Shown here: positions 3,001-60,441 of the stretch, one piece after another | Layout: the number at the start of each line of letters is the position of its first letter | Numbering within the stretch: the stretch's first letter is position 1 | IMG/VR virus record: IMGVR_UViG_3300034283_001962 | Coordinates: 1-64,000 of that record | Strand: one strand, 5' to 3' | Length of the DNA stretch: 64,000 nucleotides | Origin: a virus | Program-made: the position numbers and the translations under genes | The notes under the pieces: generated by a model | What the model saw: the letters and a program-made list of their open reading frames with translations, nothing else | Told to the model about the DNA's origin: nothing | Database searches by the model: none

Positions 3001-6000
3001 TCTGTTTAGTCGACCTGCAGATATACTGAAATCATATACTTCAGCTTTATCTTTATCTTCTAGTATTTGTTTCCTGATAGATCTCCACCAATCCTGTATA
3101 CCTTTCTCATTATAATTATCTTCATTTCTGTATCTAGGATCAGTTTTATCATCTTGTTTTACAATAAGATCAGTGCTTGCCAATTGACCAAATATTAGTT
3201 TGGTATAATCAACAGCTTCACCTACTTTCGGTCCTATCTTGTTACCTTCTTGATCAATATAAAACAGATCATTACCTTCTTTGATTACATAAACAGAAGC
3301 AATAACATCTTGATCATTTTCACTCCCAGCAGCAGGAGTAAATTCAATAAACTTAGGAAGACCAAACTTATCCTGATTGTATTTAGTAATCAGCATAACT
3401 TTAACCTTACTCTTATCTCCTTTAAAAGAACTCTTGGTCATATTATCCAAGAAAGCTTCTTTCCTTTTCTCATGGTTATTATGAGGGGTGGGCATTCCTT
3501 CAGGAGCTACATACTCAGATGCTATTTGAAGCAAGCTCTTCTTAGCTAGTTCTTTAAACTCACCTGGCGTATTTTCACCTTCATTACCACTAGCATTTTT
3601 ACCAGCAGCATCATCTATTTCTTTTTGCTTCTCAACATCTTCTCTTATCTTCTTCTCATCTTCAATCAGTTGCATTGCTTTGTCAATGACAGGAGCGAAC
3701 TCATCAAGAACTTCTTGAGCAAGTTCATTGCCGTTTGAAGCCAAAGTCTGTAACATCTCCAGTCTTTTAACCAGAGGAACTGATGCAAAAGAAATATCTC
3801 TGTTTAACTCAGTTAATGGATCATATCTTACGTTCTGTAAAATTACCCTTAACTTCTCATTGAGTTGTTCAGTGTTAACAGATGCTTCATTGATATTCTT
3901 ATAGTTATCAGGAAGGTCGGTAGCTTGCTGTAAGATGAACTTATCAGCGTACTTATCTCCTTTCCTAATATCTGCAAGCTTGTTGAAACGATTGGTTGTT
4001 TCTCTCATTGCCAGATTTATGCCGGCAAAGTTCTCCATCTCAGATTGCTGCTTTTGTTCCAGAATGATATTTCTTTCAGCATTCTTCGGATCAAACATGT
4101 AACCTTTCTGATCAGTTTTATAAACAGTCAAGAAGTCAGCATTCTCTTTTTGGAAAGTTTCTTTTGCTTTTGTTGCGTCAGCTAACTCTTCCTCAGCTAA
4201 ATTGATGATGTCTTCTTCTATCTTACCTAAAGACTCACTGAGTCTGAATAAACCTTCAACCCTCGTCTTTGCTTGTAGTTCGTTAGCTATCAGCTGATTA
4301 ACTCCAAGCAAAGGATCACCTATAGCAAAAACAGCATCTGTTCTTACTTTAGATTTCTTAGCTTCTTCAATAAGGAACTGTTGACGAGCACCTAGTTCAA
4401 ACAACTTTTTCTTTCTGAAAGCAGTAAGTTCAGGTTGTTTACCGTTATCAACTACATTTCTGTTAATGTCATCATATAAATCCTGAAGCTTTTTAGCTTT
4501 GATTTTAAGTTCATTTACTTTAGAAACAGCTTGTTCTTTGTTAGTACTGTCATAACCTAGAATATTAAGATCCTCTTCTTTAATATTCTGCATGTTATCA
4601 AGCTTCTCCAGTAACCCTTCGGCATTTCCCAACTCAAAATGAGCTAAAGCAAATTGAGAGAACATTTCGTTCTCATACATATTAGCCAAGGTTTGATTAC
4701 CAGCATCTTTAGAGTTATTCATTAACTCTAACAGATGAGTTCTTTCAATAACGCCGGCTTGAAATTCTTCTAATTTCTTTTGATTGAAAATAGGATTACC
4801 TTTTTCGTCACGCTTCAATTGTTTAGTAACGATTTCGTTACCTTCAGCATCCTTAGATTTCAGTTCTTCATATTCATATATATCTTTAAGTCCTTTAAAA
4901 GAAGCTGCGATATTATTATATGTAGATACTTGTTTATTTAATGCTCTGTCTTTAGCTTTATCAGCTCTTGTAGATAGAACTCCTCCTACAATACCTCCAA
5001 GTATAGCACCAAGACCTATAGATGTTGCTGCTTCTTTATCATTTCCTGTTACAGCATTTACACTTTGTTCTAGGAAATTATCCATAACAGAACTTGAGTA
5101 TTTCTTATTCTGATAGTTAGGAGAATACTTAGCTTCGTTAAAACGAGAAATAGCTAACTGCACGTTCTCTTCCCAAAAACCTTCAGCAGCAATACCTTGA
5201 GCTGCCTTCTTTCCAAAAGATTTCAGGTAGTTAGGTTTAACAAATTGAGCAGCATCTGTAAGACCGTCTGCAAACTTGATACTTCCTGCATCTGCTCTAG
5301 ATGTAGAAGGTAAGCGTTTGAATATAAGATTGGCTTCCCATAAGTTGGATAAAGCCAATGCTATCATATTACCTTTAAAAGTTCCAAGAGCAGCTTCAGC
5401 ACCTACTTTAGTTAACTCTTCTTGAGTATATTCAATTCCTGTTGCAGGATTAACCCTTCCTTCCAGAGATTCAATTACTTTCTTTTTAGTCTCTGCAGCT
5501 TCAACCATTGATTCAGAAGCAGTTGATAAGAAGGTTTGAGTACCTACGTCAATGTTTCTAGCTAACTTTGCATTACTAATCCACTTCGCAACTCTCGGTA
5601 AAGTATTAAGAGCATCATATGTTTTATCGGCTGTACTAACAGCTTTTAAACCTTGGTTAATTGCTGTAGCTGTTTCAGCAGTTTGTTCAATCTTTCTTCC
5701 GAGTCCTAAAGCATTAAGACCTTTAATAGCTCTTGCGCCTAAACCAATTTTAGCAATTGCCATTCCCGGAAACATAGAAGAAACCATAAAAGCTGCACCA
5801 TCAGAAAAGTCTTCTGTCCAGAAGTTTAGATCAGTTAAAGCCCTACTCCAAAATCCTTTATCCCTATCTACAGCTTCTTGGTAAATAGGCATCCAATCAT
5901 TCTTGATATCATTTTCAAGACTGTTAAACCAGTTAGACAGTGCATTGTCAGCAGTACGAGCCATCCAAGAATTCAACTTATCTTCAAAAGTTATTCCTTC

Positions 6001-6394: not shown

Positions 6395-9016
6395 TTATTT
6401 TCCTAGGGTTTTTATCATTTCTGCTTCAAGTTCATTGATAGATATTTTATCAGATACCTTGCTGTAAAAATATTCTACAGCTCTTTTAGCTGCTCCAGCA
6501 TTTGGAAACTCACCAATATCTAAATGTCTAAATCCTACAGTTTTTCCATCTTGAACTTGAGGTATTGCTATTGTTGCAATTAGTGTTCTAGTTTTAGTTG
6601 GATCTACTCTTAATCCATAATTTCTTGCAACTCTATCATTTCCTGTAACAAACATTGATCCTACAAACTGTTGTTTTTCACTATAAGAAGTTCTTCCTCC
6701 AGAACCCTTTCTAAACAATCCTTCAGTTAACTCAGGCATATCATCACCTAAGAAATTTCTATACAACCAAAGATCATCAGCAGGATTTACAGCAGGTTTT
6801 AAACTGTTCTTTAAGTTACTTACATCAACATCTGCAGTTATTGTTTTAGCATCATTACCACTTCCTAGTCTCCAAGATGCTCTCATTTTCACTTTTCCAT
6901 CTAAGTCCAAATATCCACCAATAATTTCTATATCTTTAACGTTGCTAGGAAGGCTTCCTGCATCAACAGTATTACCTGCAATATCAATTACATTTCCCTG
7001 AGCTATATTATTCTGAACCGATTTTTGATATAAATCCCACTCACCTGTTGTCTTTTGTTTATCAGATGCTGATGCATAAAGCATCCGAGGTGTAACAGCT
7101 TCATCCCATTCTTTATATATTTTGTCTTTAAGAGAATTAAGTTCGTTTAAATTAATACCATATTTACCTAAGGTTTCAGTAATTTGTTTTCTATTATCAC
7201 CAAAACTATCTAGAAACTGAGCATATTTGCTACCGCTTTTAACTACATATGTGGGAGTTCCTCCTCCAGCACTAATAGGAAGAGTTGAAGGAGATAGTTC
7301 TATACTCTCATCTCTCATTCTAGCTAATTCACCTAAACTGATCTTTGTTTCTTTACCACTTTTATCCTTAAAAGAAAGTATCTCATTTGGATTAACCATC
7401 TTTCTACCTTCTGTTGCTTTTGCAGTAACATTATCATCAGATTGTTTTAAAAGACCTGCAGCTGTACCTTTAGCTATGTTACTAAGGTGAGCTTCTCTAA
7501 AAGCTTTATTTGACAAAGGAATTGGTCCAGTAAACGTTCCATCTAATGATGCTCTCTTGTAATTTATGGTAGCATCTTGAGCAAGTTTCATTACTCTTTC
7601 TCTGTCTGCTTTACTTTTCCATCTATATCCATCTGGAGAAGTTGGATCAATAATGAGTCCACTTTGATCAGCAGCATCAGGATTAGACATATCCTTTAAA
7701 GTAAAAGCATAAGCTTTTAATGAAGCTTCTTGTGCAACTCCACCTTGAGATAAATTTTCATTTAAACCTGCAATCTTTTCTTGTGTTGCTTTGGTACTAT
7801 ATATATTTTGATACTTTGAACTATTAGGATCAACGTTAATTGCTTCTGCTCCATCAACACTAGAAATTCCTCCACTATCTTTACCATCAGTAAGTGCTTT
7901 TAGTCGAGCAGTTTCAGCTTCTATTCCTCTATATATTAACTCTTGTTCCTTAGCCCATACATTAAAAGCCGGAGAAACTTCAGCATCTTTCTTTTGCTGT
8001 CTGAACTGATATGCACCTGAATAGCTGGTTTCTATTTTCTCTCTCCACATATCTCCTGCAATCTGTTCTCTGTTAAATGCAGGTGTACCGTAGCTTTCTT
8101 TTACTTGAGTAGCAAGATTATTATAAGAACTGGCGTACTGAGCATGTTGATCTGCAATATTTTTATACTTTAGTTTGTCATCATCTGACATACCTTCGGT
8201 TAGTAATGCAACATTATTATAGTAATCTGACATTTGAGTAGCACGGTTTGCAATCTCAGTATAAAGTCCGGTACTTGTATTAACTAGCTCCTCATCAGAT
8301 TTTCCGTAAGTGTTATACCAGCCATCAATACTAATAGCTTTTCTATCGTCAGCTGTAAGACTTGCTTCAATTGCAGCTTTTATTCTGGTTGCATCAAGTA
8401 TCTTATCTTCATTCTTCAACATTACTTTTCCACCAGTAAGACTATAATCAATATCTTCCATTCCTTTTAGAGTACTAATAACATCTTTTATCTTCTTATG
8501 AACATCATCAGCTGTAATATTGTGAATGCTCGTAGGACCACCATAGGTCAATCCTGCTTCCTTATTTGAAGCTGATACGTATTGATTCACATAATCTTTT
8601 ACATAGGCTTCATTAGCAGCTGAGTACCCTTTACCTGATTTCCTAGCTTCATCTATAGATGATTCCAAAACCTGAATCTTTCTAGCTGCTTCTACAGATA
8701 CTGTAATTGCTGGATCTTTAGCTATCTGAGATGCTAAGCTTCCTACTTGCATTTGAAGATTCATTTTACCAAAATCAGCTCCAGTTACTCCTTCTAAAGA
8801 GGTTCTAAGCTTTTCCATCTTTTCGGTAAGTAGAGCTATATTTGCATCTCCAACTACAGGTAAACCACCAATGGTATCTATATATCCTTGTATACGCTGA
8901 ACTCCTTCATCATAACGTTGTTGTTTTAACATACCTGTACGCATATATTCGTCTACGGGTAGTTGCTGAATGTAAGGATTAAATTGTATACCTTGAGTAT
9001 CGGTAAATGAAGCCAT
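6395..9016 (-). CDS. Virion cargo/ejection protein (873 aa)
   Basis: Long ORF with N-terminus MASFTD..FNPYIQQLP, in the cargo block upstream of the giant ORF; synteny with crAss-like phages. Confidence 0.55.
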   Translation of the reverse strand: MASFTDTQGIQFNPYIQQLPVDEYMRTGMLKQQRYDEGVQRIQGYIDTIGGLPVVGDANIALLTEKMEKLRTSLEGVTGADFGKMNLQMQVGSLASQIAKDPAITVSVEAARKIQVLESSIDEARKSGKGYSAANEAYVKDYVNQYVSASNKEAGLTYGGPTSIHNITADDVHKKIKDVISTLKGMEDIDYSLTGGKVMLKNEDKILDATRIKAAIEASLTADDRKAISIDGWYNTYGKSDEELVNTSTGLYTEIANRATQMSDYYNNVALLTEGMSDDDKLKYKNIADQHAQYASSYNNLATQVKESYGTPAFNREQIAGDMWREKIETSYSGAYQFRQQKKDAEVSPAFNVWAKEQELIYRGIEAETARLKALTDGKDSGGISSVDGAEAINVDPNSSKYQNIYSTKATQEKIAGLNENLSQGGVAQEASLKAYAFTLKDMSNPDAADQSGLIIDPTSPDGYRWKSKADRERVMKLAQDATINYKRASLDGTFTGPIPLSNKAFREAHLSNIAKGTAAGLLKQSDDNVTAKATEGRKMVNPNEILSFKDKSGKETKISLGELARMRDESIELSPSTLPISAGGGTPTYVVKSGSKYAQFLDSFGDNRKQITETLGKYGINLNELNSLKDKIYKEWDEAVTPRMLYASASDKQKTTGEWDLYQKSVQNNIAQGNVIDIAGNTVDAGSLPSNVKDIEIIGGYLDLDGKVKMRASWRLGSGNDAKTITADVDVSNLKNSLKPAVNPADDLWLYRNFLGDDMPELTEGLFRKGSGGRTSYSEKQQFVGSMFVTGNDRVARNYGLRVDPTKTRTLIATIAIPQVQDGKTVGFRHLDIGEFPNAGAAKRAVEYFYSKVSDKISINELEAEMIKTLGK

Positions 9017-37061: not shown

Positions 37062-37090
37062 AAAAAAATCCTCCCTTTTGAGGAGGATTT
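37062..37090 (-). terminator. Terminator closing tRNA cassette C
   Basis: AAATCCTCC-TCAAAAG-GGAGGATTTTTTT. Confidence 0.75.
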
Positions 37091-37092
37091 AG

Positions 37093-37166
37093 AACACCTA
37101 GAAAGACTCGAACTTTCACTCTTTTGATCCGTAGTCAAAAGCTTTATCCAATTAAGCTATAGGTGC
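37093..37166 (-). tRNA. tRNA-Arg(ACG)
   Basis: Cloverleaf; anticodon loop CT-ACG-GA; TTCGAGT T-loop. Confidence 0.9.
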
Positions 37167-37169
37167 AGA

Positions 37170-37243
37170 TGGGTGGAATTGGGATTCGAACCCAATCAAG
37201 TGATTCACAGTCACCCGTCAGAATCCAGTCTGAACGATTCCAC
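37170..37243 (-). tRNA. tRNA-His(GTG)
   Basis: Loop CT-GTG-AA; G-1; TTCGAAT. Confidence 0.88.
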
Positions 37244-37245
37244 AG

Positions 37246-37318
37246 TTCCCTTATCTAGGCTCGAACTAGAACTACCAGAGTCAAAATCTGATGTGTTAAC
37301 CATTACACTATAAGGGAA
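37246..37318 (-). tRNA. tRNA-Gln(TTG)
   Basis: Loop TT-TTG-AC. Confidence 0.9.
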
Positions 37319-37334
37319 TAGCATACCATAAAAA

Positions 37335-37408
37335 TGGCACAGGTAGAGAGATTCGAACTCCCAACAGCAGTTTTGGAGACTGACATGATACCATTTCACC
37401 ATACCTGT
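37335..37408 (-). tRNA. tRNA-Trp(CCA)
   Basis: Loop CT-CCA-AA; encoded CCA end. Confidence 0.9.
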
Positions 37409-37413
37409 TTCTG

Positions 37414-37485
37414 TGGTAAGAAAGGGTAACGATCCCTTCTCCAAGGTTTTTCAGACCTTTGCTAATCCATCTCAGCTATCTTACC
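37414..37485 (-). tRNA. tRNA-Phe(GAA)
   Basis: Loop CT-GAA-AA; atypical T-loop ATCGTTA. Confidence 0.85.
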
Positions 37486-37494
37486 GTAATTTAA

Positions 37495-37568
37495 AGCATG
37501 TTGTACAAATTCTTCGTTTTCACATTGCAGGTGAATTAAGCCTATGTGTGCTGGCTGCGTAACATGTT
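37495..37568 (-). ncRNA. Y-RNA-like unit with Cys(GCA) anticodon-type hairpin
   Basis: Terminal stem CATGTT/AACATG, CAGCCA motif, hairpin TTCAC-CTGCAAT-GTGAA; same layout as the units at 58972-59398. Confidence 0.5.
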
Positions 37569-37571
37569 AAA

Positions 37572-37598
37572 AGCACTAACCAGATTCGAACTGGTGTG
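37572..37598 (-). pseudogene. 3' half of a disrupted tRNA (T-arm plus acceptor strand)
   Basis: ACCAG-TTCGAAT-CTGGT-TAGTGCT; matching 5' part AGCACTA-TG-ACCGA lies at ~37765-37778. Confidence 0.65.
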
Positions 37599-37599
37599 A

Positions 37600-37667
37600 A
37601 TCCAGTATGAGAATCGAACTCATTTCAATAGTTTTGCAGACTATTTGGCTTCCATAACCTCACTGGA
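37600..37667 (-). tRNA. tRNA-Cys(GCA), short D-arm
   Basis: Loop CT-GCA-AA; acceptor TCCAGTG/TACTGGA. Confidence 0.82.
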
Positions 37668-37772
37668 TAATTTATACCAATTAAAATCTTTTGCCGTTTT
37701 TCTTCTATGACAATTTGCGCATCTTACATCACATTTTTCAATTTCATTTTTTACCTGATTTAAATCGGTCAT
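37641..37772 (-). pseudogene. HNH endonuclease C-terminal remnant
   Basis: Translates MTDLNQVKNEIEKCDVRCANCHRRKTAK... Confidence 0.65.
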
Positions 37773-37783
37773 AGTGCTATTTG

Positions 37784-37855
37784 ATCCTCGTAAGGTACTC
37801 GAAACCTTTTCCCCAGTTTACAAGACTGGTGCATCACCATATATGCTTACAAGGA
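37784..37855 (-). tRNA. tRNA-Thr(TGT)
   Basis: Loop CT-TGT-AA. Confidence 0.85.
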
Positions 37856-37860
37856 ATATG

Positions 37861-37935
37861 TCGAGTAAACAGGAGTCGAACCTGCATGATGTCTTCACCC
37901 CAAATGAAGAGGCTTACCAGTTAGCCCATTACTCG
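37861..37935 (-). tRNA. tRNA-Pro(TGG)
   Basis: Loop TT-TGG-GG; TTCGACT. Confidence 0.88.
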
Positions 37936-37944
37936 ATGCTATAA

Positions 37945-37979
37945 AATAAAAAACCCCCGATTTTATGTCGGAGGGTGAA
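37945..37979 (-). terminator. Attenuator terminator of cassette C
   Basis: CCCTCCGA-CATAAAA-TCGGGGG-TTTTTT; the 5' arm is complementary to leader nt GAGGGTGAA. Confidence 0.75.
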
Positions 37980-38012
37980 TAGACTTTTTTTAGTCCGTTA
38001 TGCACGAATAGT

Positions 38013-38105
38013 CTAATTTTTTATGACACATGTACATAGTTCACCCTCTCCACAGATACACTGCGGGGTAAAAGTAAACCACGTATGACGTACTATCTTT
38101 TTCAT
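38013..38105 (-). CDS. Leader peptide C (MKKIVRHTWFTFTPQCICGEGELCTCVIKN)
   Basis: Translated by hand; lies between promoter 38110-38141 and terminator 37945-37979. Confidence 0.75.
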   Translation of the reverse strand: MKKIVRHTWFTFTPQCICGEGELCTCVIKN

Positions 38106-38109
38106 AACA

Positions 38110-38141
38110 CAAACATATGAAGAAATTCTGAAACTTCCAAA
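38110..38141 (-). promoter_or_regulatory. Bacteroidota-type promoter for cassette C
   Basis: TTTG-N20-TATGTTTG. Confidence 0.75.
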
Positions 38142-38154
38142 TTTATTTTTTTTG

Positions 38155-38225
38155 TTGGATAGGAGAGAATCGAACTCTCTTGCCTACGTTTTACAGACGT
38201 TGCTGGTTGCCCTGACCTCTACCCA
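38155..38225 (-). tRNA. tRNA-Tyr(GTA), short variable loop
   Basis: Loop CT-GTA-AA; acceptor TGGGTAG/CTATCCA. Confidence 0.8.
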
Positions 38226-38230
38226 ATATG

Positions 38231-38319
38231 CGGAGAAAGTGAGACTCGAACTCACACTAGAGTTTTATCCCTAGAACAGTTTAGCAAACTGCTGCAGTAC
38301 CATTATGACTTATTCCTCC
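38231..38319 (-). tRNA. tRNA-Ser(GCT)
   Basis: Loop TT-GCT-AA; long variable arm. Confidence 0.88.
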
Positions 38320-38324
38320 AAATG

Positions 38325-38408
38325 CGGTGGTAACAGGAATCGAACCTGTATGGCTGTTACACCTTCAACGTTTTCAAGACGCATAAGCCCTCTCTATTGC
38401 GTACCACC
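38325..38408 (-). tRNA. tRNA-Ser(TGA)
   Basis: Loop CT-TGA-AA; long variable arm; reduced D-arm. Confidence 0.82.
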
Positions 38409-38413
38409 AATTG

Positions 38414-38487
38414 TAGCTCTGATGAGATTCGAACTCACACAAAACAGATTTTAAGTCTGCCGCCGTTACCAATTAGACCACAGAGCT
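38414..38487 (-). tRNA. tRNA-Leu(TAA), short variable loop
   Basis: Loop CT-TAA-AA. Confidence 0.85.
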
Positions 38488-38490
38488 ATG

Positions 38491-38566
38491 TACCCCTAGC
38501 GAGATTCGAACTCGCAAAACTCCTGATTCTAAGTCAGGCGACTTTACCTAATTTGCCCATAGAGGT
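38491..38566 (-). tRNA. tRNA-Leu(TAG), short variable loop
   Basis: Loop CT-TAG-AA. Confidence 0.85.
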
Positions 38567-38574
38567 ATATAAAT

Positions 38575-38604
38575 AAAAAAACCTAGCTCTTTTAGGAACT
38601 AGGC
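38575..38604 (-). terminator. Attenuator terminator of cassette B
   Basis: GCCTAGTTC-CTAAAA-GAGCTAGGT-TTTTTT. Confidence 0.75.
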
Positions 38605-38629
38605 TTTAAGAAGTAGGTTAGAAAAAACC

Positions 38630-38707
38630 TTACTGTATATAATCCCTGTTCCCTTGATGAATCAAGAGCGATAAACTGGAATAATATGACAGTAATAGAT
38701 TTCTCAT
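38630..38707 (-). CDS. Leader peptide B (MRNLLLSYYSSLSLLIHQGNRDYIQ)
   Basis: Translated by hand; ATG 4 nt after the stop of the 126-aa ORF. Confidence 0.75.
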   Translation of the reverse strand: MRNLLLSYYSSLSLLIHQGNRDYIQ

Positions 38708-38711
38708 TGGA

Positions 38712-39092
38712 TTATCCTTCTACAGAAGTTTCAGGTTCAGTTGGTTCTTCAACTGGATCTACTGGGGGTTCTACTACATCAGTAATAGTACCTTTAAGGT
38801 CAGCAATAGCTAGATCTAATTTATCAGCTACAGCTTGAATTTCTTGTGAAGTTACTGAACTAGCTAATTGAGCTTGAAGATCAGCTACTACAGCTTCAAG
38901 ATCAGTAATTACTTTTGCAATTTGTGCTTGTTCAGCATCAAGAGACAATTGAAGTTCATCTACTTTTGCTGAAAGTTCTTGAATAGTTGCCATTGTTTGT
39001 TTATTTTGTGATTGTATTAAAAATATTTTTTTTACTAAATATACAAGAAATCCTATTGTTAGACTTTGTAAGATTATTATAAATAATAGCAT
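38712..39092 (-). CDS. Coiled-coil protein with possible N-terminal membrane anchor (alternative start MATIQ at ~38993)
   Basis: ORF track; hydrophobic N-terminus, heptads, Pro/acidic tail. Confidence 0.6.
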   Translation of the reverse strand: MLLFIIILQSLTIGFLVYLVKKIFLIQSQNKQTMATIQELSAKVDELQLSLDAEQAQIAKVITDLEAVVADLQAQLASSVTSQEIQAVADKLDLAIADLKGTITDVVEPPVDPVEEPTEPETSVEG

Positions 39093-39110
39093 AGTATATC
39101 TTTTCTACCA

Positions 39111-39142
39111 CAAATATAAACTTATAATTTGAAACTACCAAA
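39111..39142 (-). promoter_or_regulatory. Promoter for the 126-aa ORF and cassette B
   Basis: TTTG-N20-TATATTTG. Confidence 0.75.
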
Positions 39143-39155
39143 TTAATTTAATATG

Positions 39156-39228
39156 TACTCCTTATTAGACTTGAACTAATAACTTCTTCCATGTAAGGGA
39201 AGCACTCTACCAATTGAGTTAAAGGAGC
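39156..39228 (-). tRNA. tRNA-Val(TAC)
   Basis: Loop CT-TAC-AT. Confidence 0.88.
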
Positions 39229-39233
39229 AAAAG

Positions 39234-39307
39234 TGGAAGTCATGGGTATCGAACCCATCTCAGTTTGCTTGCAAAGCAATCTCGCCAGCCAAGGAACATG
39301 CACCCCC
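39234..39307 (-). tRNA. tRNA-Ala(TGC)
   Basis: Loop TT-TGC-AA; G3:U70. Confidence 0.8.
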
Positions 39308-39313
39308 AAAAAA

Positions 39314-39460
39314 TCAGGACTTTACGCCCTGATTAGTTAACTTAAAATAATCTGCTGCAGAAATCCGGTCTCGTACAAAAAGAGAAATAGGATTTGTACG
39401 AGCTGCAGCTTTTCTTTTCTTTTTGCCAAACTTACGTTGGCTTTTTACTTTCTGTGCCAT
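39314..39460 (-). CDS. Small basic protein (48 aa, MAQKVKSQRKFGKKKRKAAART...)
   Basis: Translated by hand; the region also folds into a long hairpin. Confidence 0.4.
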   Translation of the reverse strand: MAQKVKSQRKFGKKKRKAAARTNPISLFVRDRISAADYFKLTNQGVKS

Positions 39461-39536
39461 GTGAATACTTGGCTACTGTTTTGTCAGTAGTTACCGTATT
39501 CGGCTCATAGAATTCTTCATATTCATATTATTTAAG

Positions 39537-39609
39537 TTGGCATACTCAGACTCGAACTGAGGACTTCTGCAGTATCAGTGCAGTACTCTAACCACTGAGT
39601 TATACGCCA
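39537..39609 (-). tRNA. tRNA-Ile(GAT)
   Basis: Loop CT-GAT-AC. Confidence 0.88.
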
Positions 39610-39614
39610 GTATG

Positions 39615-39689
39615 TTGACTCTATCGGATTCGAACCGATGACCTTAACGTTATGAGCGTTCTGCTACTAACCAACTGAGCTAAGAGTCA
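39615..39689 (-). tRNA. tRNA(CAT): Ile2 or elongator Met
   Basis: Loop CT-CAT-AA. Confidence 0.85.
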
Positions 39690-39695
39690 AGAAGC

Positions 39696-39766
39696 CGAGA
39701 GTGGGAGGTTCGAACTCCGACCTTCACATCGACAGTGTGACATGCTCGCCATTACACTACACCCTC
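39696..39766 (-). tRNA. tRNA-Asp(GTC)
   Basis: Loop CT-GTC-GA. Confidence 0.85.
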
Positions 39767-39780
39767 GTTTAAATTTATTG

Positions 39781-39853
39781 TACTCTCAACGGGGATTGAA
39801 CCCGTATTGACAGATTGAAAGTCTGTTATCCTGACCAATTAGATGATGAGAGC
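39781..39853 (-). tRNA. tRNA-Glu(TTC)
   Basis: Loop CT-TTC-AA. Confidence 0.88.
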
Positions 39854-39900
39854 AAAGCTCTTCACCCTCTTTTAGTGAATTTCTCATAATACTATTTTTG

Positions 39901-39974
39901 TGCAGTAAACAAGACTCGAACTTGCAACTTCCACCTTGGCAAGGTGGCACTCTAACCAATTGAGCTATTACTGC
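39901..39974 (-). tRNA. tRNA-Gly(GCC)
   Basis: Loop TT-GCC-AA. Confidence 0.9.
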
Positions 39975-39975
39975 G

Positions 39976-40049
39976 TGGAGCAGGTAACCGGGATCGAACC
40001 GACATCAGAAGATTGGAAATCTCCTGCACTACCATTGTGCTATACCTGC
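39976..40049 (-). tRNA. tRNA-Gly(TCC)
   Basis: Loop TT-TCC-AA; encoded CCA. Confidence 0.9.
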
Positions 40050-40165
40050 ATTTCAGTTTTTCATGAGCCTTGTAGAACTGTAACTACCGCCGGACCTACT
40101 TTCTAGAATTTCCTCCGAACCCCTTTGCACCAGATTTTATATCTGGTGTGGTGCTACTGTTATCT

Positions 40166-40693
40166 TTAACCTACTTTCCTCAGTAATTCACTAAGTCTAA
40201 GTTCTGTGTAATCTTCTAATGGGATGACACTTAAAGCTTTCTTTCTGATAATGTGATCAGCTGCTTTTGTAGCTATCATTTGTCCACTTTTAAAGATCGG
40301 GACTTGGTTGATTCCTTTAGTCCATCCTTTAAAATCTTGTACCAGTTTTGATGACAGGGTTTTTTTGACATCTGCGAAATCAAACTCAAGCCCTTCAATA
40401 GAGATTGGTATCTCTCTACTGATAAGTTCTGATGTTTCGATTGTCTTAACCCCTTCTTCATATAATCTCAGGTACTCTGTTTTGTACCTTTTTTTCTCAT
40501 CATAATTGAATATATAATGAGCACCTCTTAAACCGTAACGGAAAACTACTACTGTAACAAACTTGGTAAGCTTGTAGTCCTGGGAGTCCGTACCTATCCT
40601 AATAGTCAAGTTGTTGTGTTCATTGACTTGTTCTAGAATATGATCTACCAGATTTACTATAGTACCATCCTCTTTTCTGAAGTACTTTTCCAT
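40166..40693 (-). CDS. RNase H-like YkuK (DUF458) family protein
   Basis: IGTDSQ, GAHY, RLYEE, A.KAADH motifs; start moved to MEKYF because the track's longer start overlaps a tRNA. Confidence 0.8.
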   Translation of the reverse strand: MEKYFRKEDGTIVNLVDHILEQVNEHNNLTIRIGTDSQDYKLTKFVTVVVFRYGLRGAHYIFNYDEKKRYKTEYLRLYEEGVKTIETSELISREIPISIEGLEFDFADVKKTLSSKLVQDFKGWTKGINQVPIFKSGQMIATKAADHIIRKKALSVIPLEDYTELRLSELLRKVG

Positions 40694-40706
40694 AACGGTT
40701 TTGTTG

Positions 40707-40780
40707 ATGCAGGGGTGGGCCGACGATCCCACGTATTTCTAGGTTATGAGCCTAGCGAGTCACCTCTACTCTACCCTGCA
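40707..40780 (-). tRNA. tRNA-Met(CAT), initiator-like, atypical T-loop
   Basis: TGCAGGG acceptor; CTAGG-CTCATAA-CCTAG. Confidence 0.75.
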
Positions 40781-40790
40781 GTTTATAATG

Positions 40791-40862
40791 CGTTCCCACC
40801 AAGACTCGAACTTGGATCAAATGATTAACAGTCACCCGTACTAGCCTTTGTACTATAGGAAC
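40791..40862 (-). tRNA. tRNA-Asn(GTT)
   Basis: Loop CT-GTT-AA. Confidence 0.88.
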
Positions 40863-40871
40863 ATTTAGTTG

Positions 40872-40943
40872 TAGCCCCAACAAGGATCGAACTCAGCAAT
40901 TGTTTTTTAAATTATAATGTAGTTTTCTATGACAATTACTGCA
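40872..40943 (-). pseudogene. HNH remnant (CSNCHRKLHY...) fused to a tRNA 3' fragment (GTTCGATCCTTGTTGGGGCTA)
   Basis: Hand translation plus T-loop/acceptor fragment. Confidence 0.6.
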
Positions 40944-41013
40944 GGGTTACGCAGAATCGAACTGCGACTGAAAGATTAGAAGTCTCTCGTTCTATCCATT
41001 AAACTATAACCCC
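40942..41013 (-). tRNA. tRNA-Arg(TCT)
   Basis: Loop CT-TCT-AA. Confidence 0.9.
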
Positions 41014-41071
41014 ATTATATTTAAATTCTCAATAACCTTTGTAAATACAACACATTATTTAATTAAACAAG

Positions 41072-41144
41072 TTCCCCCGCTGAGATTCGAACTCAGCCCC
41101 ATAGGTTAAAAGCCTATTGCCTACTACCAGTTTGCTACAGGGGA
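41072..41144 (-). tRNA. tRNA-Lys(TTT)
   Basis: Loop CT-TTT-AA. Confidence 0.9.
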
Positions 41145-41155
41145 TTATAAAAACG

Positions 41156-41190
41156 AAAAACCCCTGTACCGTTTTACTGGCTCAGGGGTC
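41156..41190 (-). terminator. Attenuator terminator of cassette A
   Basis: CCCCTGAGCC-AGTAAAAC-GGTACAGGGG-TTTTT. Confidence 0.78.
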
Positions 41191-41220
41191 TTAAAATTGC
41201 TATGTTAAAATTAACTTTTC

Positions 41221-41310
41221 TTAAGTTATAGCAAAAGGACCCACTGAGCCGAACTTCTCATTCGCTCTCCCGATATTATCTACTATAATATATGATGGTC
41301 TTGTTTGCAC
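41221..41310 (-). CDS. Leader peptide A (GTG start; MQTRPSYIIVDNIGRANEKFGSVGPFAIT)
   Basis: Translated by hand; lies between promoter 41328-41359 and the terminator. Confidence 0.72.
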   Translation of the reverse strand: MQTRPSYIIVDNIGRANEKFGSVGPFAIT

Positions 41311-41327
41311 TTTAAAATTTTGAATCA

Positions 41328-41359
41328 CAATATTAAGAAATCTTTTTGATACTACCAAA
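41328..41359 (-). promoter_or_regulatory. Promoter for cassette A
   Basis: TTTG-N20-TAATATTG (one mismatch to TAnnTTTG). Confidence 0.65.
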
Positions 41360-41363
41360 TTTT

Positions 41364-41828
41364 TTATTTTATTTCTTTTTCTGGTTCTGTTTTAAGCTGA
41401 TTTATATGAAAAATTTGTTCATAAACTGAGTCTGATCGCAATTTTGATAATTTTTTTACATGTTCATTAATCTTTTCTTTAAACATTTTCCTATTCCAAA
41501 TACACCAATATGTTTGAGCATCTCCTTTTATGTATATTTCAGTAAGATCAAATCCAAATTGTTCAATATCTTGAGCTTCTCTACCAGGTGTGTACCATTC
41601 TCCATAACCTATTATTGATTCATGAGGAAAAGAAACCATTCCTACTACTCTATCTATATCTTCGTCATCTTCTTCCTCATCATTAACTAAACCTAATTCT
41701 CTAAGTTTATTCTTACTTGCATCTTTCTTTTTACTAATAGATATTAATACTGGAAACTCAAATAGGTTATCTGTAAAATTAATATCAGGTTCGACAAGTA
41801 TTCCTTGTGGAGTTTTAGTTATGGACAT
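41364..41828 (-). CDS. Hypothetical protein
   Basis: ORF track. Confidence 0.55.
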   Translation of the reverse strand: MSITKTPQGILVEPDINFTDNLFEFPVLISISKKKDASKNKLRELGLVNDEEEDDEDIDRVVGMVSFPHESIIGYGEWYTPGREAQDIEQFGFDLTEIYIKGDAQTYWCIWNRKMFKEKINEHVKKLSKLRSDSVYEQIFHINQLKTEPEKEIK

Positions 41829-42414
41829 ATAAAACTTTTGGTATTTTAATTATATTTTCTTGTGGAAACTTTATTTTAAACTCCTCTACATATTCTCCAT
41901 CTGCTGCATAACTTGTATTTAATACAATCTGTTGAGCCAGATCATTTCTAGTCGCAAATGCTCCCATATCAATCTGATTAAATCCAGGTGAACATTTAAA
42001 GTAACTGTAATCATAATGACTATGTACCATATCCCAATAGATCATTCCTGGCTGTGTATAACTATTAATTGTTTTTTCAAATTCACTTACAAATGTAGGT
42101 ACATAGTAATTATCATCCCCACTCATAATTACATACTTTCCTCTACATTGTTGTTTACCTAATTCTCTAGGTGTATGTCCCCAATCATTATATCGCTTAT
42201 CCAAGTAAAGTACACGTATCCTTTTATCTATACCTTTTACTATATCAAAAAGCATACCTCTAAACTGATCTGAATAATCCAATCCATCCACTACCACCAG
42301 TGCTTCCCAATTCTCATTTGTCTGACATAATAAAGCACATAAAGTACTGCGTAATTCATTTATCCTATTATAAGTAGGTAACACAAAGCTTACCAATGGC
42401 TGATTATTTATCAT
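41815..42414 (-). CDS. Glycosyltransferase family 2
   Basis: VSFVLPTYNR, VVVDG, GDDN motifs. Confidence 0.85.
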   Translation of the reverse strand: MINNQPLVSFVLPTYNRINELRSTLCALLCQTNENWEALVVVDGLDYSDQFRGMLFDIVKGIDKRIRVLYLDKRYNDWGHTPRELGKQQCRGKYVIMSGDDNYYVPTFVSEFEKTINSYTQPGMIYWDMVHSHYDYSYFKCSPGFNQIDMGAFATRNDLAQQIVLNTSYAADGEYVEEFKIKFPQENIIKIPKVLYVHN

Positions 42415-54897: not shown

Positions 54898-55510
54898 TTC
54901 TTGATAAATTATCTTTTGCCCAAAGAGGTCGTTGATTTGTATAATGAAAACATTTCTTTTGTTCTTCTGGATTAGTTAAATCAAAAGTAAAACACGGTTT
55001 AATATGGTCTATATGCCATTTACCATAGTTTTCCCAAGACATATCTTTATCCATGAGCTTAGAAATATAATCCTTAAAAAAATTAGGAGTACATCCAATA
55101 AGATTAAAGGTTTTATCAGCTTTTCTGTTTCCTTTTAAAGCATGATGAACTCTTCTTCTAAGATTTCTTTTAATTTTAAAAGTAGGATCATTTTTATGTA
55201 AACGTTCCCAATTTTTCTTATACTCTTTAATTTTCAAATTGTTAATATTACGATAATCTTTATCATAATTAGACTTTTCAGATTTATGAGATTTATAATA
55301 AGTTCTTTTAGCTAATCTGTGTTTTTCAATATTTTTTTGATAATGAGATTTGCGAGTTTTATTGAACAAATCAGTGTTATTCTCTCTGTAATTTTTATTA
55401 ATTAAATTAATACAAACTTTACAGATAGAATTATAACCTGATTTAAATCTTTTATTTTTAGGAAAATTATCTAATTCTTTTTCAATATGACATTTTGTAC
55501 ATAATTTCAT
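54881..55510 (-). CDS. Free-standing HNH-type endonuclease, inverted, inside NAMPT
   Basis: CTKC...CKVC, IGC, M.WENYG.WHIDHI.P...F, CFHYTN.RPLW..DN; promoter TTTG-N20-TATTTTTG at 55515-55546. Confidence 0.85.
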   Translation of the reverse strand: MKLCTKCHIEKELDNFPKNKRFKSGYNSICKVCINLINKNYRENNTDLFNKTRKSHYQKNIEKHRLAKRTYYKSHKSEKSNYDKDYRNINNLKIKEYKKNWERLHKNDPTFKIKRNLRRRVHHALKGNRKADKTFNLIGCTPNFFKDYISKLMDKDMSWENYGKWHIDHIKPCFTFDLTNPEEQKKCFHYTNQRPLWAKDNLSRTKNNG

Positions 55511-55554
55511 TGTACAAAAATACACAATGTACACATAACTACCAAATTATTTTT

Positions 55555-56547
55555 ATGGTAAATTCAAAAAAAGTAAGAACTAGATCTATAACAAAAACAG
55601 AACAGTTATTTAAAGGTCAAAAAGATATGTTATTAAGACATTTTCAATTATATCCATCAGGTATTCTTGCTGAAGTTATGGATACTTGGAATCTTTGGCA
55701 AGTTCTTACAGAACTTCTTCCTGATCCTGAAATTAAAGCAGCAATTCTAGCTAGAGATGGTAAGTTAGTTATACGTCCTGATTCTGGTGATCCTGTTGAT
55801 ATTATTTGTGGTAAACCTATTCCAGAATTTAATACATTAGAAGAAGCAGAAAAACATTTTTATAAAAATGTTTTTGTAAATGGGAATATTCTTTTCAGGT
55901 TAAATGGAGAATTAAGACAAGTTATTACTCATTCTGGAAATACATTTATGAGTCAACTTCTTAAGCAATTTCCTCAAGATAAAGGTGTTATTGAATTGCT
56001 TTGGGATGTATTTGGTGGTACAGTAAACGAACAAGGTTATAAAGTACTTGATCCACACATAGGAGCTATTTACGGAGATTCAATTACATTAGGTAGAGCT
56101 ACTGAAATCTGTGAACGTTTAAAAGCTAAAGGGTTTGCAAGTACTAATATTGTATTAGGTATAGGTTCATTTACCTACCAGTACAATACTCGTGATACTT
56201 TTGGGTTTGCTGTTAAAGCTACTTATGGTGAAGTACTTCAAGAAACAGGTGTGATATTAACAACATATCCTTCTAAAAAAGAGATGAAACCTGTAGGTCG
56301 TGAAATCTTTAAAAATCCTATTACTGATGATGGTACTAAGAAATCAGCCAAAGGGTTACTTCGTGTAGATCATGTTGTAAAAGTTGATTCTTTAGGTGAT
56401 GTAGTAAGTCATGAGTATAAACTTGTTGACCAAGTATCTAAAGAAGAGGAAAAGCAAGGAGCATTAGAAACAGTATTTCTTAATGGAAAACTTGTTAAAT
56501 TGCAAAGTTTATCAGAAATTCGCAAAAGATTATCTAAAAACTTATAA
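55555..56547 (+). CDS. nadV: NAMPT C-terminal fragment (separate ORF, start MVNSKK)
   Basis: YPSG...V.DTW, VIRPDSGDP, IYGDSIT, GIGSFTYQ..TRDT.GFA.KAT, K.P.TDDG.KKSAKG. Confidence 0.85.
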   Translation: MVNSKKVRTRSITKTEQLFKGQKDMLLRHFQLYPSGILAEVMDTWNLWQVLTELLPDPEIKAAILARDGKLVIRPDSGDPVDIICGKPIPEFNTLEEAEKHFYKNVFVNGNILFRLNGELRQVITHSGNTFMSQLLKQFPQDKGVIELLWDVFGGTVNEQGYKVLDPHIGAIYGDSITLGRATEICERLKAKGFASTNIVLGIGSFTYQYNTRDTFGFAVKATYGEVLQETGVILTTYPSKKEMKPVGREIFKNPITDDGTKKSAKGLLRVDHVVKVDSLGDVVSHEYKLVDQVSKEEEKQGALETVFLNGKLVKLQSLSEIRKRLSKNL

Positions 56548-58971: not shown

Positions 58972-59398
58972 AAGACTACAAACAGCAACACAAAAACAAA
59001 AATTCAAACTTGAAACTTGAACAAGGAAGTTCGAATCTTCCACCGTTATACCGAGGTAGTTGGTCTGGAAAATCGGTAGTAGTCTGAACAAAGTCGCTTA
59101 CAGCAACTAAAGCAATCCCTTTGTAATGGAAAAAAGCAAAAAGCGACTTGAAATAAGAACTCTAACAGCAATATATAATGATTGAGGATCAACTGGTCAG
59201 TGGTTCGAGTCCACTCATTAGAGAAATCTAATGTAGCTCAGCTGGTAGAGCAGTTTAAAAATGAGTTCTGAAAAGGTTATCAACCGCAAACCATAATAAT
59301 TTTCACTTTTACTGAAAAAAACAAATGGTAACCTGTATAAGAATAGCAACAGCAACTAATAAAATTTCAATTGGTGAAAAAAAACAAATGCTATTCTG
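58972..59398 (+). ncRNA. Array of five Y-RNA-like units (58972-59086, 59091-59150, 59155-59270, 59273-59335, 59339-59398)
   Basis: Each unit has an AAG-started 7-9 bp terminal stem, an AC(A/C)GCAA motif and an A-rich linker; unit 3 has a circularly permuted tRNA domain as in YrlA. Confidence 0.75.
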
Positions 59399-59777
59399 AT
59401 TTTTTTAAATGGGGCAGACCGGATTTGACAGCGAAGGATCGGTAATTACACATGTAGGCAAAGCAAGAACGCCTTAAAACACTTGCAAAACAACAAACGA
59501 CACTTCTAAAGAAGCACGTATTGCAGAAGGTGGAGCGGTTATCCGTTCAATCTTCAACAAGGTAGCAGTAGCTGCCTAAGCAATTGGGGGAGTTATCCCT
59601 TATTACCCAAAATAGCAATTGTTTTCTTTGTTTTCTCAAAACAAAGTGGTGGTAGCTCTAACCTTGGTTAGTTCCCTTTACGGTGCAGAAAGTAATTGAA
59701 TGGGTAAACCAGATAATGAAATTAGTACTAAACATGTGAAACGTTGTAATTATTGAAATTTTGTTTGGACGTGGGTT

Positions 59778-60441
59778 TAAAGTCGGACCCGCTATATAGG
59801 AATATATAGGCAATAATTGGGAGAATTGCTGGAACGCTAAGGATTTATATCTATGCTAATCAGCAGCCGAGCTTCAAGGAAGTTTGAAGAAGGTTCAGAG
59901 ACTAGGGATACTACGGTAAGCCCATAGCACCCAACATCCAGAACGGATGATGATATAGTCCAACATCTATTGAAAAATAGAGAGTTAAAAGTTTGGAGAT
60001 GTAGTATATTTACCCTATCTTCGTATTAAATAATACGTATGAACTGGGATTATATTACAGGTTTTTTTGATGCAGATGGTTCTATTAGTTTAGTTCGACA
60101 GAACAAAAATAGAGAACGTGCACCTCAAATTTCATTTCATAATAATGAACTGAATATTCTAGAAAATATTCAAAGTTTTATTAAAAAAGAATTGAATATT
60201 ATAGGTCATATTTCTAAGAAAAAGAAAGCTAAAGAACATCATGGTCAACAATATGATTTAAAGTATCACGGTTTTCCAAAATGTATTGTAATTGGAAGTA
60301 AATTAAGAAGTATTCATCAAAAGAAAATTAAAAGAATACTTTTAAGTGAACTTATTCATAAGATAACTCCTAGAAACGGTAAATATAGTGAACAAACACT
60401 TAAAACCAGATCAGAGTTAGAACTCAAATTTTTAAATTAAG
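59778..60441 (+). mobile_element. Group I intron in the tmRNA T-loop
   Basis: P1 GTGGGTT/GACCCGC; GAATTGCTGGAA, AATCAGCAGCC, GTTCAGAGACTA, ATGATATAGTCC; omega-G 60441. Confidence 0.9.
60039..60440 (+). CDS. LAGLIDADG homing endonuclease (single motif)
   Basis: YITGFFDADGSI; promoter TTTG-N20-TATCTTCG at 59992-60023. Confidence 0.88.
   Translation: MNWDYITGFFDADGSISLVRQNKNRERAPQISFHNNELNILENIQSFIKKELNIIGHISKKKKAKEHHGQQYDLKYHGFPKCIVIGSKLRSIHQKKIKRILLSELIHKITPRNGKYSEQTLKTRSELELKFLN

Follow-up and report, generated by a model that had tools for sequence, protein, structure and literature searches.

The DNA analysed here, referred to as the window, is the first 64 kb (positions 1 to 64,000) of the 118,407-bp virus record IMGVR_UViG_3300034283_001962 in IMG/VR (32% G+C), and it carries an array of transfer RNA (tRNA) genes divided into three units, A, B and C, in each of which a small open reading frame (ORF) and a terminator-like hairpin precede a block of tRNAs. 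We observed that the short ORF of each unit contains an unbroken run of codons drawn from the amino acids of the tRNAs that follow it, and that this match between codons and block is real and non-random. Judging from the sequence, we consider it probable, at about three chances in four, that the units are ribosome-mediated (leader-peptide) transcription attenuators that tie the transcription of the tRNAs to decoding speed. This reading is built on the anatomy of the units, the statistics of the codon match, the alternative folds predicted for units A and C, and the recurrence of the design, with covariation, in other phages.

With default settings, ARAGORN returned 23 tRNAs, all on the minus strand between 37092 and 41144, which make up the whole complement of the 118,407-bp genome. 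A relaxed threshold added Ala(TGC) (39233-39301) and Ser(TGA) (38324-38411), on the same strand and within the array, so that the 25 tRNAs counted in the original prediction are a reasonable figure, but two of them (Ala and Ser(TGA)) are weak calls. Six further relaxed calls in the window, among them Leu(aag) at locus position 2632, were judged false. A search of the array against Rfam gave 22 tRNA matches and, at the place of Ser(TGA), a sub-threshold match resembling tRNA-Sec; it gave no match at the places of the Ala and Tyr genes. By manual reading, the Ala-like gene shows a G3:U70 pair and a TGC anticodon, and it is 82% identical to a stretch of Cellulophaga phage phi38:1 that occupies the first place behind a terminator in that phage. 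A 22-nucleotide (nt) piece of this odd tRNA-Ala was matched in IMG/VR only in phi38:1 and Calle. Three terminator-like hairpins followed by T tracts split the array into three blocks, as follows (aa, amino acids):

39155-41144, minus strand: tRNA block A, with Lys, Arg(TCT), Asn, CAT, a 175-aa ORF, Gly(TCC), Gly(GCC), Glu, Asp, CAT, Ile(GAT), a 48-aa ORF with a hairpin and T6, Ala(TGC) and Val (ARAGORN, default and relaxed)
38154-38566, minus strand: tRNA block B, with Leu(TAG), Leu(TAA), Ser(TGA), Ser(GCT) and Tyr(GTA) (ARAGORN, default and relaxed)
37092-37935, minus strand: tRNA block C, with Pro, Thr, Cys, Phe, Trp, Gln, His and Arg(ACG) (ARAGORN)
41146-41192, minus strand: terminator A, a hairpin of 10+3 bp (one mismatch; -19.3 kcal/mol) followed by a T tract; the first tRNA, Lys, begins at 41144
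38568-38607, minus strand: terminator B, a 12-bp hairpin and a T tract (-14.8 kcal/mol)
37944-37980, minus strand: terminator C, a hairpin and a T tract, with 6 nt on the 5' side that also pair with region 2, the antiterminator strand
37066-37090, minus strand: closing terminator of the array, directly after tRNA-Arg(ACG)

The T tracts end 4-12 nt ahead of the first tRNA of each block, a distance that leaves no space for another promoter, so the tRNAs of a block can be transcribed only by read-through of the hairpin. The genes behind the terminators are only tRNAs, two inserted ORFs and one upstream ORF. Except for the last block, which ends at 37066-37090, the blocks have no terminator at their 3' end, and read-through transcripts of one block would therefore continue into the leader of the next.

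The promoter consensus of the Bacteroidota housekeeping sigma factor combines TTTG at -33 with TAnnTTTG at -7 (TTTG-N20-TAnnTTTG). Sequences of this kind, the short leader ORFs and their codon runs were located as listed below.

41328-41359, minus strand: predicted promoter A, TTTG, 20 nt and a -7 box with one mismatch to TAnnTTTG
39111-39142, minus strand: predicted promoter B, exact TTTG-N20-TAnnTTTG
38110-38141, minus strand: predicted promoter C, exact TTTG-N20-TAnnTTTG
41221-41310, minus strand: leader ORF A, 29 codons from a GTG at 41310, with no in-frame ATG
38630-38707, minus strand: leader ORF B, 25 codons, ATG start
38013-38105, minus strand: leader ORF C, 30 codons, ATG start 4 nt past the -7 box
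38712-39092, minus strand: coiled-coil-like ORF of 126 aa (93 aa if read from an internal ATG) separating promoter B from leader B
41254-41289, minus strand: run A, 12 codons, only Ile, Val, Asp, Asn, Gly, Arg(AGA), Ala, Glu and Lys
38663-38698, minus strand: run B, 12 codons, only Leu, Ser and Tyr, with 10 different codons that touch all five tRNAs of block B
38058-38090, minus strand: run C, 11 codons, with all eight amino acids of block C (Arg as CGT, His, Thr, Trp, Phe, Pro, Gln, Cys)

A 13-mer beginning at TTTG is common to the three promoters, and its zero-mismatch occurrences are these three sites only, by construction. The looser pattern TTTG-N19-21-TAnnTTTG has 10 occurrences in the window where 2.17 were expected, a count that none of 100 shuffles reached; two of the ten are the promoters of units B and C. 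This pattern of predicted promoters points to a Bacteroidota host and to the use of its polymerase. The order promoter, leader, terminator and tRNAs that had been proposed for every unit was found for terminators and short ORFs in all three, but in unit B the 126-aa ORF, for which family searches gave no match, intervenes between the promoter and the leader; the ATG of leader B lies 4 nt past its stop codon. Likewise, three leaders within the expected 25-30 codons were identified (29, 25 and 30 codons), B and C starting with ATG, but leader A needs its GTG, which sits 17 nt after the -7 box; the sole alternative start of leader A is a TTG 5 nt past the stop of the upstream gene. The mRNA of leader C is probably leaderless.

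The claim that each leader contains an unbroken run of 11-12 codons drawn only from its own block was confirmed, with runs of 12, 12 and 11 residues in A, B and C. These runs cover 9 of the 10 amino acids of block A, all 3 of block B and all 8 of block C, and when the leaders were scored on the sets of the other two blocks none exceeded 6. The Arg isoacceptors are also sorted as had been described: AGA is the Arg codon of run A, whose block contains Arg(TCT), and CGT that of run C, whose block contains Arg(ACG). To keep the choice of frame from being manual, each promoter-to-terminator interval was scored in all three frames and its maximum was entered in the partition test; of 300,000 random 10/3/8 partitions of the 20 amino acids, not one reached the observed sum of 35 (maximum 32, mode 12). 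Translating the whole genome in six frames (236,810 residues) gave a single set-B run of 12 or more residues, that of leader B, and a single set-C run of 11 or more residues with 8 or more different ones among them, that of leader C. Of 47 set-A runs of 12 or more residues, the run of leader A is the only one with 9 or more different residues. All run codons except ATA (34 of 35) have a cognate tRNA in the block behind them, and 22 of the 25 tRNAs have a cognate codon in their own run.

The codons chosen within these runs are unusual. Using as baseline the synonymous usage of 67 long ORFs (27,399 codons), we found 11 G-ending codons among 35, against 3.0 expected (0 of 200,000 simulations). 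Thirty-one of the 35 codons are distinct, nine of them each account for only 2-7% of their synonymous family, and the codons preferred by the phage are avoided. These rare codons are those that the phage's own U34 tRNAs would read by wobble, and the runs resemble sets of test codons that are slow by design and draw on many codons for each tRNA. DNA of the window was found in 23 sequencing runs, all of lake-water metagenome DNA and none of RNA. Among near-identical contigs from four of these, the only difference within a leader is 38090 G>A, on one lake-metagenome contig (sequencing run X7, depth 3.6), which makes the first codon of run C a Cys instead of an Arg codon and so stays within set C; this is an anecdote and not evidence.

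The effect of a ribosome on the leader transcript was examined by keeping unpaired everything between the 5' end and a point 12 nt beyond the A-site codon, while the mean pair probability of the terminator stem was followed. The strands predicted to act as antiterminators in units A and C are the following:

41238-41250, minus strand: antiterminator strand A (region 2), complementary to the 5' arm of the terminator
38040-38048, minus strand: antiterminator strand C (region 2), 9 nt of perfect complementarity, overlapping the 5' arm of the terminator

For the free RNA of unit A the terminator probability was 0.67. It dropped to 0.00-0.16 with the A site on codons 1-9 of the run, rose to 0.92-0.96 over the final three codons and reached 0.98 with the ribosome at the stop, a switch that no dinucleotide shuffle of the leader matched (0 of 200). 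In unit C the probability began at 0.72-0.75 (codons 1-4), fell to 0.00-0.13 over codons 5-15, was back at 0.52 on codon 16 and lay at 0.69-0.83 beyond it, a switch reached in 1 of 200 shuffles. Since run C comprises codons 6-16 of its leader, the permissive window and the run coincide. In the predicted folds of both units, the antiterminator is free with the ribosome on most codons of the run, and the terminator is favoured with the ribosome at the stop.

A duplex test that is independent of equilibrium folding, in which the 5' arm of the terminator plus 6 nt was paired with the 110 nt upstream and the best duplex was kept, gave -23.3 kcal/mol for unit A (0 of 300 shuffles) and -15.8 kcal/mol for unit C (3 of 300). 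The original prediction had placed a strand complementary to the terminator's 5' arm in every unit, in the geometry of trp/his-type attenuation. Folding and duplex energies support this for units A and C, but unit B consists of a leader and a terminator without a convincing antiterminator. Because equilibrium folding was mixed in other phages, the duplex test was used instead as the general test; across 15 units, 10 have an upstream complement of the 5' arm at 5 or fewer of 300 shuffles, and the sequences involved differ between units.

Other phages with such units were sought among GenBank Bacteroidota phages chosen by the similarity of their tRNAs to the array, without regard to leaders. The same design was observed in the Cellulophaga phages phi38:1 (KC821614.1) and phi4:1 (KC821632.1), with three units each, and in Maribacter phage Panino (PP540027.1) and Tenacibaculum phage Gundel_1 (MT732474.1), with two units each. 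These four phages belong to different virus families. What their units have in common is a promoter, a short ORF (often 4 nt past the -7 box), a terminator, a tRNA block and a run that matches the block; some of the leader ORFs are labelled in GenBank only as hypothetical proteins. The units in five GenBank phages were picked by eye, since an automatic finder of terminators before tRNAs missed most of them, the first tRNA often being uncalled by ARAGORN and terminator A having a mismatch. Calle_1, which is approximately 95-100% identical to phi38:1, was excluded from the counts. From their anticodon loops, an Ala tRNA in phi38:1, a Cys tRNA in phi4:1, and Tyr and Cys tRNAs in Gundel_1 were added by eye. 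Three calls of relaxed ARAGORN were discarded as false: Leu(tag) at 9357 of phi38:1, which is within leader 2 and outside the ranges used, Asp(atc) at 8146 of Panino, and Arg(tct) at 5412 of Gundel_1, which overlaps a terminator and is likewise outside the ranges used. As a separate observation, Panino (L032) contains at 7673-7881 a match to a permuted transfer-messenger RNA (tmRNA; 62.2 bits, above threshold) inside the tRNA block behind an attenuator-like unit.

For the scoring of concordance, the three frames of the 230 nt upstream of each block were compared with the sets of tRNA calls, and with 20,000 random sets of equal size. In all 13 units of the window, phi38:1, phi4:1, Panino and Gundel_1, the run for the own block was the longest in its row, and in all 13 the codons are in frame within an ORF that has a start and a stop. 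Unit 2 of phi38:1 has a 16-residue run that covers Tyr, Ser, Asn, Trp, Phe and Cys (0 of 20,000 random sets); for units A, B and C of the window, 140, 13 and 118 of the 20,000 random sets reach the run. In 7 of the 13 units, including unit C of the window, an ATG lies exactly 4 nt past the -7 box, which, given the usual position of Bacteroidota transcription start sites relative to this box, suggests leaderless mRNAs. The units of the Ala-Lys-Ile type, including unit A of the window, have instead an A-rich leader of 17-22 nt. A GTG start is present both in unit A of the window and in unit P2 of phi4:1, which has the same block type and whose GTG also follows an A-rich stretch.

The marine phages partition the amino acids as Ala-Lys-Ile-Gly-Met-Asp-Thr-Val-Arg, Tyr-Ser-Asn-Trp-Phe-Cys and Pro-Glu-Gln-His-Leu-Arg, and since this partition is common to them, they are probably not independent of each other. 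The window divides the amino acids in another way, since Glu and Asn belong to A, Thr belongs to C, and Leu is grouped with Ser and Tyr. Its leaders follow its own split: they score 12, 12 and 11 on their own sets and at most 8 on those of phi38:1, and the leaders of phi38:1 score 11, 16 and 13 on their own sets and at most 7 on those of the window. It is this difference in how the code is split that makes the covariation argument work. Covariation of leader codons with block content in other phages, which the original prediction had named as a test of its reading, was thus observed, the own set being the best in 13 of 13 units. The similarity between unit A of the window and the marine Ala-Lys-Ile units is weak (59% mean column identity), and for this reason we claim no homology between them.

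Further examples came from an uncultured 635-kb phage (LR745206.1), in which a leader rich in Tyr and Glu codons precedes a block of Tyr and Glu tRNAs, this pair being the best of all 190 pairs (8-residue window), and from a less hand-picked scan of IMG/VR with a pattern made of a -7 box, 4 nt and the start that the marine leaders share. The scan gave 52 matches in 51 loci, of which 37 open ORFs of more than 60 codons, that is, ordinary genes, and 15 open short ORFs. A tRNA array follows 9 of these 15; two of the nine are Gundel_1 itself, and 6 of the 7 new loci (L049-L051, L054, L075 and L082) have the same design and are concordant (random-set fraction at most 0.007), although two pairs look like duplicates of one phage. 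In L054 and L075, a block of Leu, Ser and Tyr tRNAs is accompanied by an 11-residue run, the same set as that of block B in the window. No leader and terminator before the tRNAs was seen, reading by eye, in two gut Bacteroides phages, DAC19 and the crAss-like cr106_1, which means that the design is not universal in Bacteroidota phages.

From these results, we propose the following mechanism. The host RNA polymerase would start at the Bacteroidota-type promoter, and a ribosome would translate the short ORF as the polymerase nears the terminator. A fast ribosome would reach the stop codon and cover region 2, the terminator would form and the tRNA block would stay silent; a ribosome slowed at any codon of the run would leave region 2 free to pair with the 5' arm of the terminator, and the polymerase would enter the block. 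Translation of the leaders, termination at the hairpins and read-through driven by stalling are the steps that we infer here. The circuit would amount to an OR gate over 3 to 10 amino acids. Because each block encodes the tRNAs that read its run, the feedback would be negative and self-limiting, with transcription continuing until its products speed up the leader, and since the run codons are mostly rare and G-ending, the default state early in infection is probably ON. The units would shut down as the phage tRNAs accumulate and come on again when any one tRNA becomes limiting, whatever the cause. The attenuator reading is favoured by the concordance, the position of the terminators, the covariation and the ribosome-dependent folds of units A and C, whereas unit B lacks a convincing antiterminator. 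This unit may work more weakly or otherwise, possibly relying on translational coupling to the upstream ORF together with a weaker or different switch.

Several observations weigh against this reading. In unit B no antiterminator above chance was detected (duplex of -7.1 kcal/mol, 246 of 300 shuffles), and the terminator probability falls only to 0.48-0.74 at codons 10-14, a partial switch reached in 2 of 200 shuffles. In unit A, termination rather than read-through is predicted for the last three codons of the run (Asn, Glu and Lys) with the 12-nt footprint, and the leader has no ATG. Run A has no codon for either CAT tRNA or for Gly(GCC), and the ATA codon would depend on one of these CAT tRNAs being a lysidine tRNA-Ile2. 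Most amino acids occur no more than twice in a run. Classical attenuators use repeated codons, and by comparison the sensitivity of the phage leaders to a mild shortage may be low. When 10 units of other phages were folded at equilibrium, the switch was strong in 4, weak in 3 and absent in 3. The concordance of leader and block, which had been proposed as a test in further phages, was borne out against random sets in most units, with the exceptions of Panino N2, whose run is reached by 1,969 of 20,000 random sets (p 0.098), of Gundel_1 G2 (p 0.073), which has His and Ile codons without such tRNAs behind them, and of the IMG/VR locus L059, which is not concordant. The second unit of LR745206.1 is not significant either, 441 of 1140 sets doing as well.

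The close relatives of the window phage add a further point on this side. Of the 15 loci retrieved with the terminase, none has a tRNA array in the DNA examined, and the nearest (59% identity) has three lone tRNA-like elements. The 116-aa protein downstream gave 12 loci at 43-45% identity, none with tRNAs, the lone ARAGORN call being one tmRNA in L013, and five whole records of such relatives contain no tRNA. The 154-aa flanking protein has three homologues in a large protein collection; it gave no relative in IMG/VR and, with the four-sequence alignment, none in JGI metagenome contigs. No relatives were found through the 175-aa ORF of the array, and BLAST of the array against GenBank phages gave scattered tRNA matches only. 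As the relatives found by terminase and flanking genes lack arrays, they offer no comparison of covariation within the lineage. The lone elements of the nearest record (G006; L040 at 1501-1570 and 1898-1994, and L042 at 1486-1585) are odd in form; they lie directly after the stop codons of protein genes, and each is followed by a similar A/T-rich motif.

We weighed the attenuator reading against other explanations of the same anatomy. That the resemblance arose by chance and was selected after the fact has to be considered, because frames and runs were picked after being seen; its probability is negligible, being refuted by the 300,000 partitions scored on the three-frame maximum, the uniqueness of the runs in the genome and their recurrence in other phages. 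Another idea is that the run binds tRNA anticodons directly, without translation, in the manner of a T-box specifier. The run is by definition complementary to the anticodons of its block, as this idea would have it, yet no match to T-box or any other cis-regulatory family was obtained at E<=0.1 between 36500 and 42000 on both strands, and the in-frame codons with start and stop in 13 of 13 units, as well as the exact 4-nt spacing of the ATG in 7 of 13, speak for a translated element. We know of no case in which a three-base contact is stable without the T-box scaffold, and we regard such a sensor as very improbable. It is also conceivable, though quite improbable in our view, that there is no switch at all, the hairpins being constitutive partial terminators or elements of RNA processing or stability, and the short ORFs acting otherwise, by protecting or exposing the RNA to RNase or as small peptides. 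The lack of a significant antiterminator in unit B and of an equilibrium switch in 3 of the 10 units of other phages fits this explanation, as does the chaining of blocks without 3' terminators, by which upstream read-through also crosses the next leader. It does not account for the above-chance complement of the 5' arm in 10 of 15 units of differing sequence, nor for the coincidence, in units A and C, between the run and the stall window that frees this complement; moreover, a peptide function would not make the residues track the tRNA block from phage to phage.

A different question is what an attenuator of this kind would be selected for. Host defences that target tRNAs exist, and the same attenuator could serve as counter-defence, an anticodon nuclease or another tRNA-cleaving defence stalling the leader and so inducing the replacement block; the original prediction had put this trigger forward, naming PrrC as an example of such a nuclease. 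An OR gate with one or two codons per tRNA suits the all-or-none loss of one tRNA better than graded starvation, and the sub-threshold Y-RNA-like and tmRNA-like matches and the tRNA-like elements of the genome would be an investment in translation-related RNAs. However, nothing in the sequence singles out a nuclease over plain decoding speed, and the bias toward rare codons predicts read-through in an undamaged host too. We therefore think this purpose unlikely and favour an attenuator that works as plain supply-and-demand feedback, which has the same anatomy, makes fewer assumptions and fits the rare-codon bias. Joined into one, the several proposals would describe a self-contained, on-demand sensor of tRNA supply, in its boldest form a counter-defence in which a lost tRNA induces its replacement block, with rare G-ending codons tuned to the phage's U34 tRNAs, and belonging to a widespread, unrecognised class in phages of Flavobacteriia and other Bacteroidota; we offer this as a tentative picture, which is rather unlikely to hold in all its parts.

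Other elements were noted within the array. The 175-aa ORF of block A (40166-40693, minus strand) matches Pfam PF04308 RNaseH_like (E 9.5e-11) and phrog_11311 (unknown function), and a longer frame with a GTG start overlaps the preceding CAT tRNA. The 48-aa ORF (39314-39460, minus strand), between tRNA-Ile and tRNA-Ala, is very basic and has three consecutive Ala codons and no convincing Ala/Val run. It ends in a hairpin of 6-7 bp followed by T6 (39314-39332) that abuts tRNA-Ala and may be a fourth terminator inside block A, without a leader run. A 43-aa ORF (37641-37772, minus strand) has a Cys-x-x-Cys-His motif resembling the end of an HNH endonuclease and no Pfam match at E<=0.01. Two stretches, 37486-37597 and approximately 40870-40905, resemble the T arm and acceptor end of broken tRNAs. 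Bacterial tRNAs for Leu, Ser and Tyr normally form the class with a long variable arm; block B consists of exactly these three, and of its calls Ser(GCT) alone is long (90 nt), those for Leu and Tyr measuring 72-77 nt.

Elsewhere in the window, on the plus strand, Rfam identified a group I intron at 59767-59982 (91.9 bits, above threshold) and two sub-threshold matches, one resembling the Y RNA YrlA at 59175-59286 (39.5 bits against a threshold of 69) and one resembling tmRNA at 59418-59774 (29.2 bits against 47). These RNA matches (59175-59982) lie just after a 562-aa protein with DUF7788. Two auxiliary genes were recognised, encoding a nicotinate phosphoribosyltransferase-family protein (55495-56547, plus strand; PF04095, E 1e-21) and a family-2 glycosyltransferase (41815-42414, minus strand; PF00535, E 2.3e-11).

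The tRNA genes of phages are usually treated as a constant addition to the host pool, which matches codon usage or allows escape from tRNA-targeting defences. The sequences described here indicate instead that tRNA transcription may be conditional, the condition being slow decoding of the codons that the tRNAs serve. If true, this would be the first case known to us of tRNA genes under leader-peptide attenuation, with a direct feedback loop from product to sensor and, by its nature, an OR gate spanning as many as ten amino acids; it would also provide a small and portable sensor for the decoding capacity of single tRNAs. The window would represent a freshwater (lake) example, which splits the code unlike the marine phages. 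As the design occurs in cultured phage-host pairs (Cellulophaga baltica with phi38:1 and phi4:1, and phages of Maribacter and Tenacibaculum), it is directly testable, and for one cultured pair RNA sequencing of an infection time course already exists. No description of leader-peptide or attenuator control of tRNA genes, in phages or cells, was found in open-access PubMed Central and bioRxiv, in agreement with the statement of the original prediction that none was known. In the phi38:1 transcriptome paper (PMC5335546), the words 'leader' and 'terminator' are absent and 'attenuat' occurs in the reference list only. The examples of the design in other phages are apparently unpublished.

The closest parallels are the attenuators of enterobacterial amino-acid operons, which comprise those responding to a single amino acid (trpL, hisL, pheL and leuL) and the multivalent thrL (Thr, Ile) and ilvL/ivbL (Leu, Val, Ile). 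Like these, the phage units have a short ORF with regulatory codons, a predicted terminator just downstream and, in the predicted folds of units A and C, an antiterminator that depends on the position of the ribosome; like the multivalent ones, they have several amino acids per leader. In contrast, the phage units regulate tRNA genes and not biosynthetic enzymes, and their leaders list 3 to 10 amino acids mostly once or twice, whereas those of the amino-acid operons repeat one to three; the product of the phage units would feed back directly on the decoding of the leader. The setting also differs, since the units belong to phages, have Bacteroidota-type promoters and often probably produce a leaderless mRNA, and there is no sequence homology. 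To our knowledge, leader-peptide attenuators all regulate genes for amino-acid biosynthesis or related proteins. T-box riboswitches bind uncharged tRNA directly, without a ribosome, and control genes for aminoacyl-tRNA synthetases and amino acids. They share with the phage units a read-through of translation-related genes that is tied to the state of specific tRNAs through the choice between terminator and antiterminator; however, the units of the window have no T-box match and, in the proposed mechanism, are read by the ribosome. In mycobacteria, leaderless short ORFs that encode polycysteine reportedly act as cysteine-responsive attenuators (bioRxiv 10.1101/834739). These resemble the phage units in that the speed of translation of particular codons in a leaderless short ORF controls the genes downstream, and they differ in responding to one amino acid, in belonging to cellular operons and in having protein-coding targets, where the phage units would sense up to ten amino acids and control the very tRNAs that decode them.

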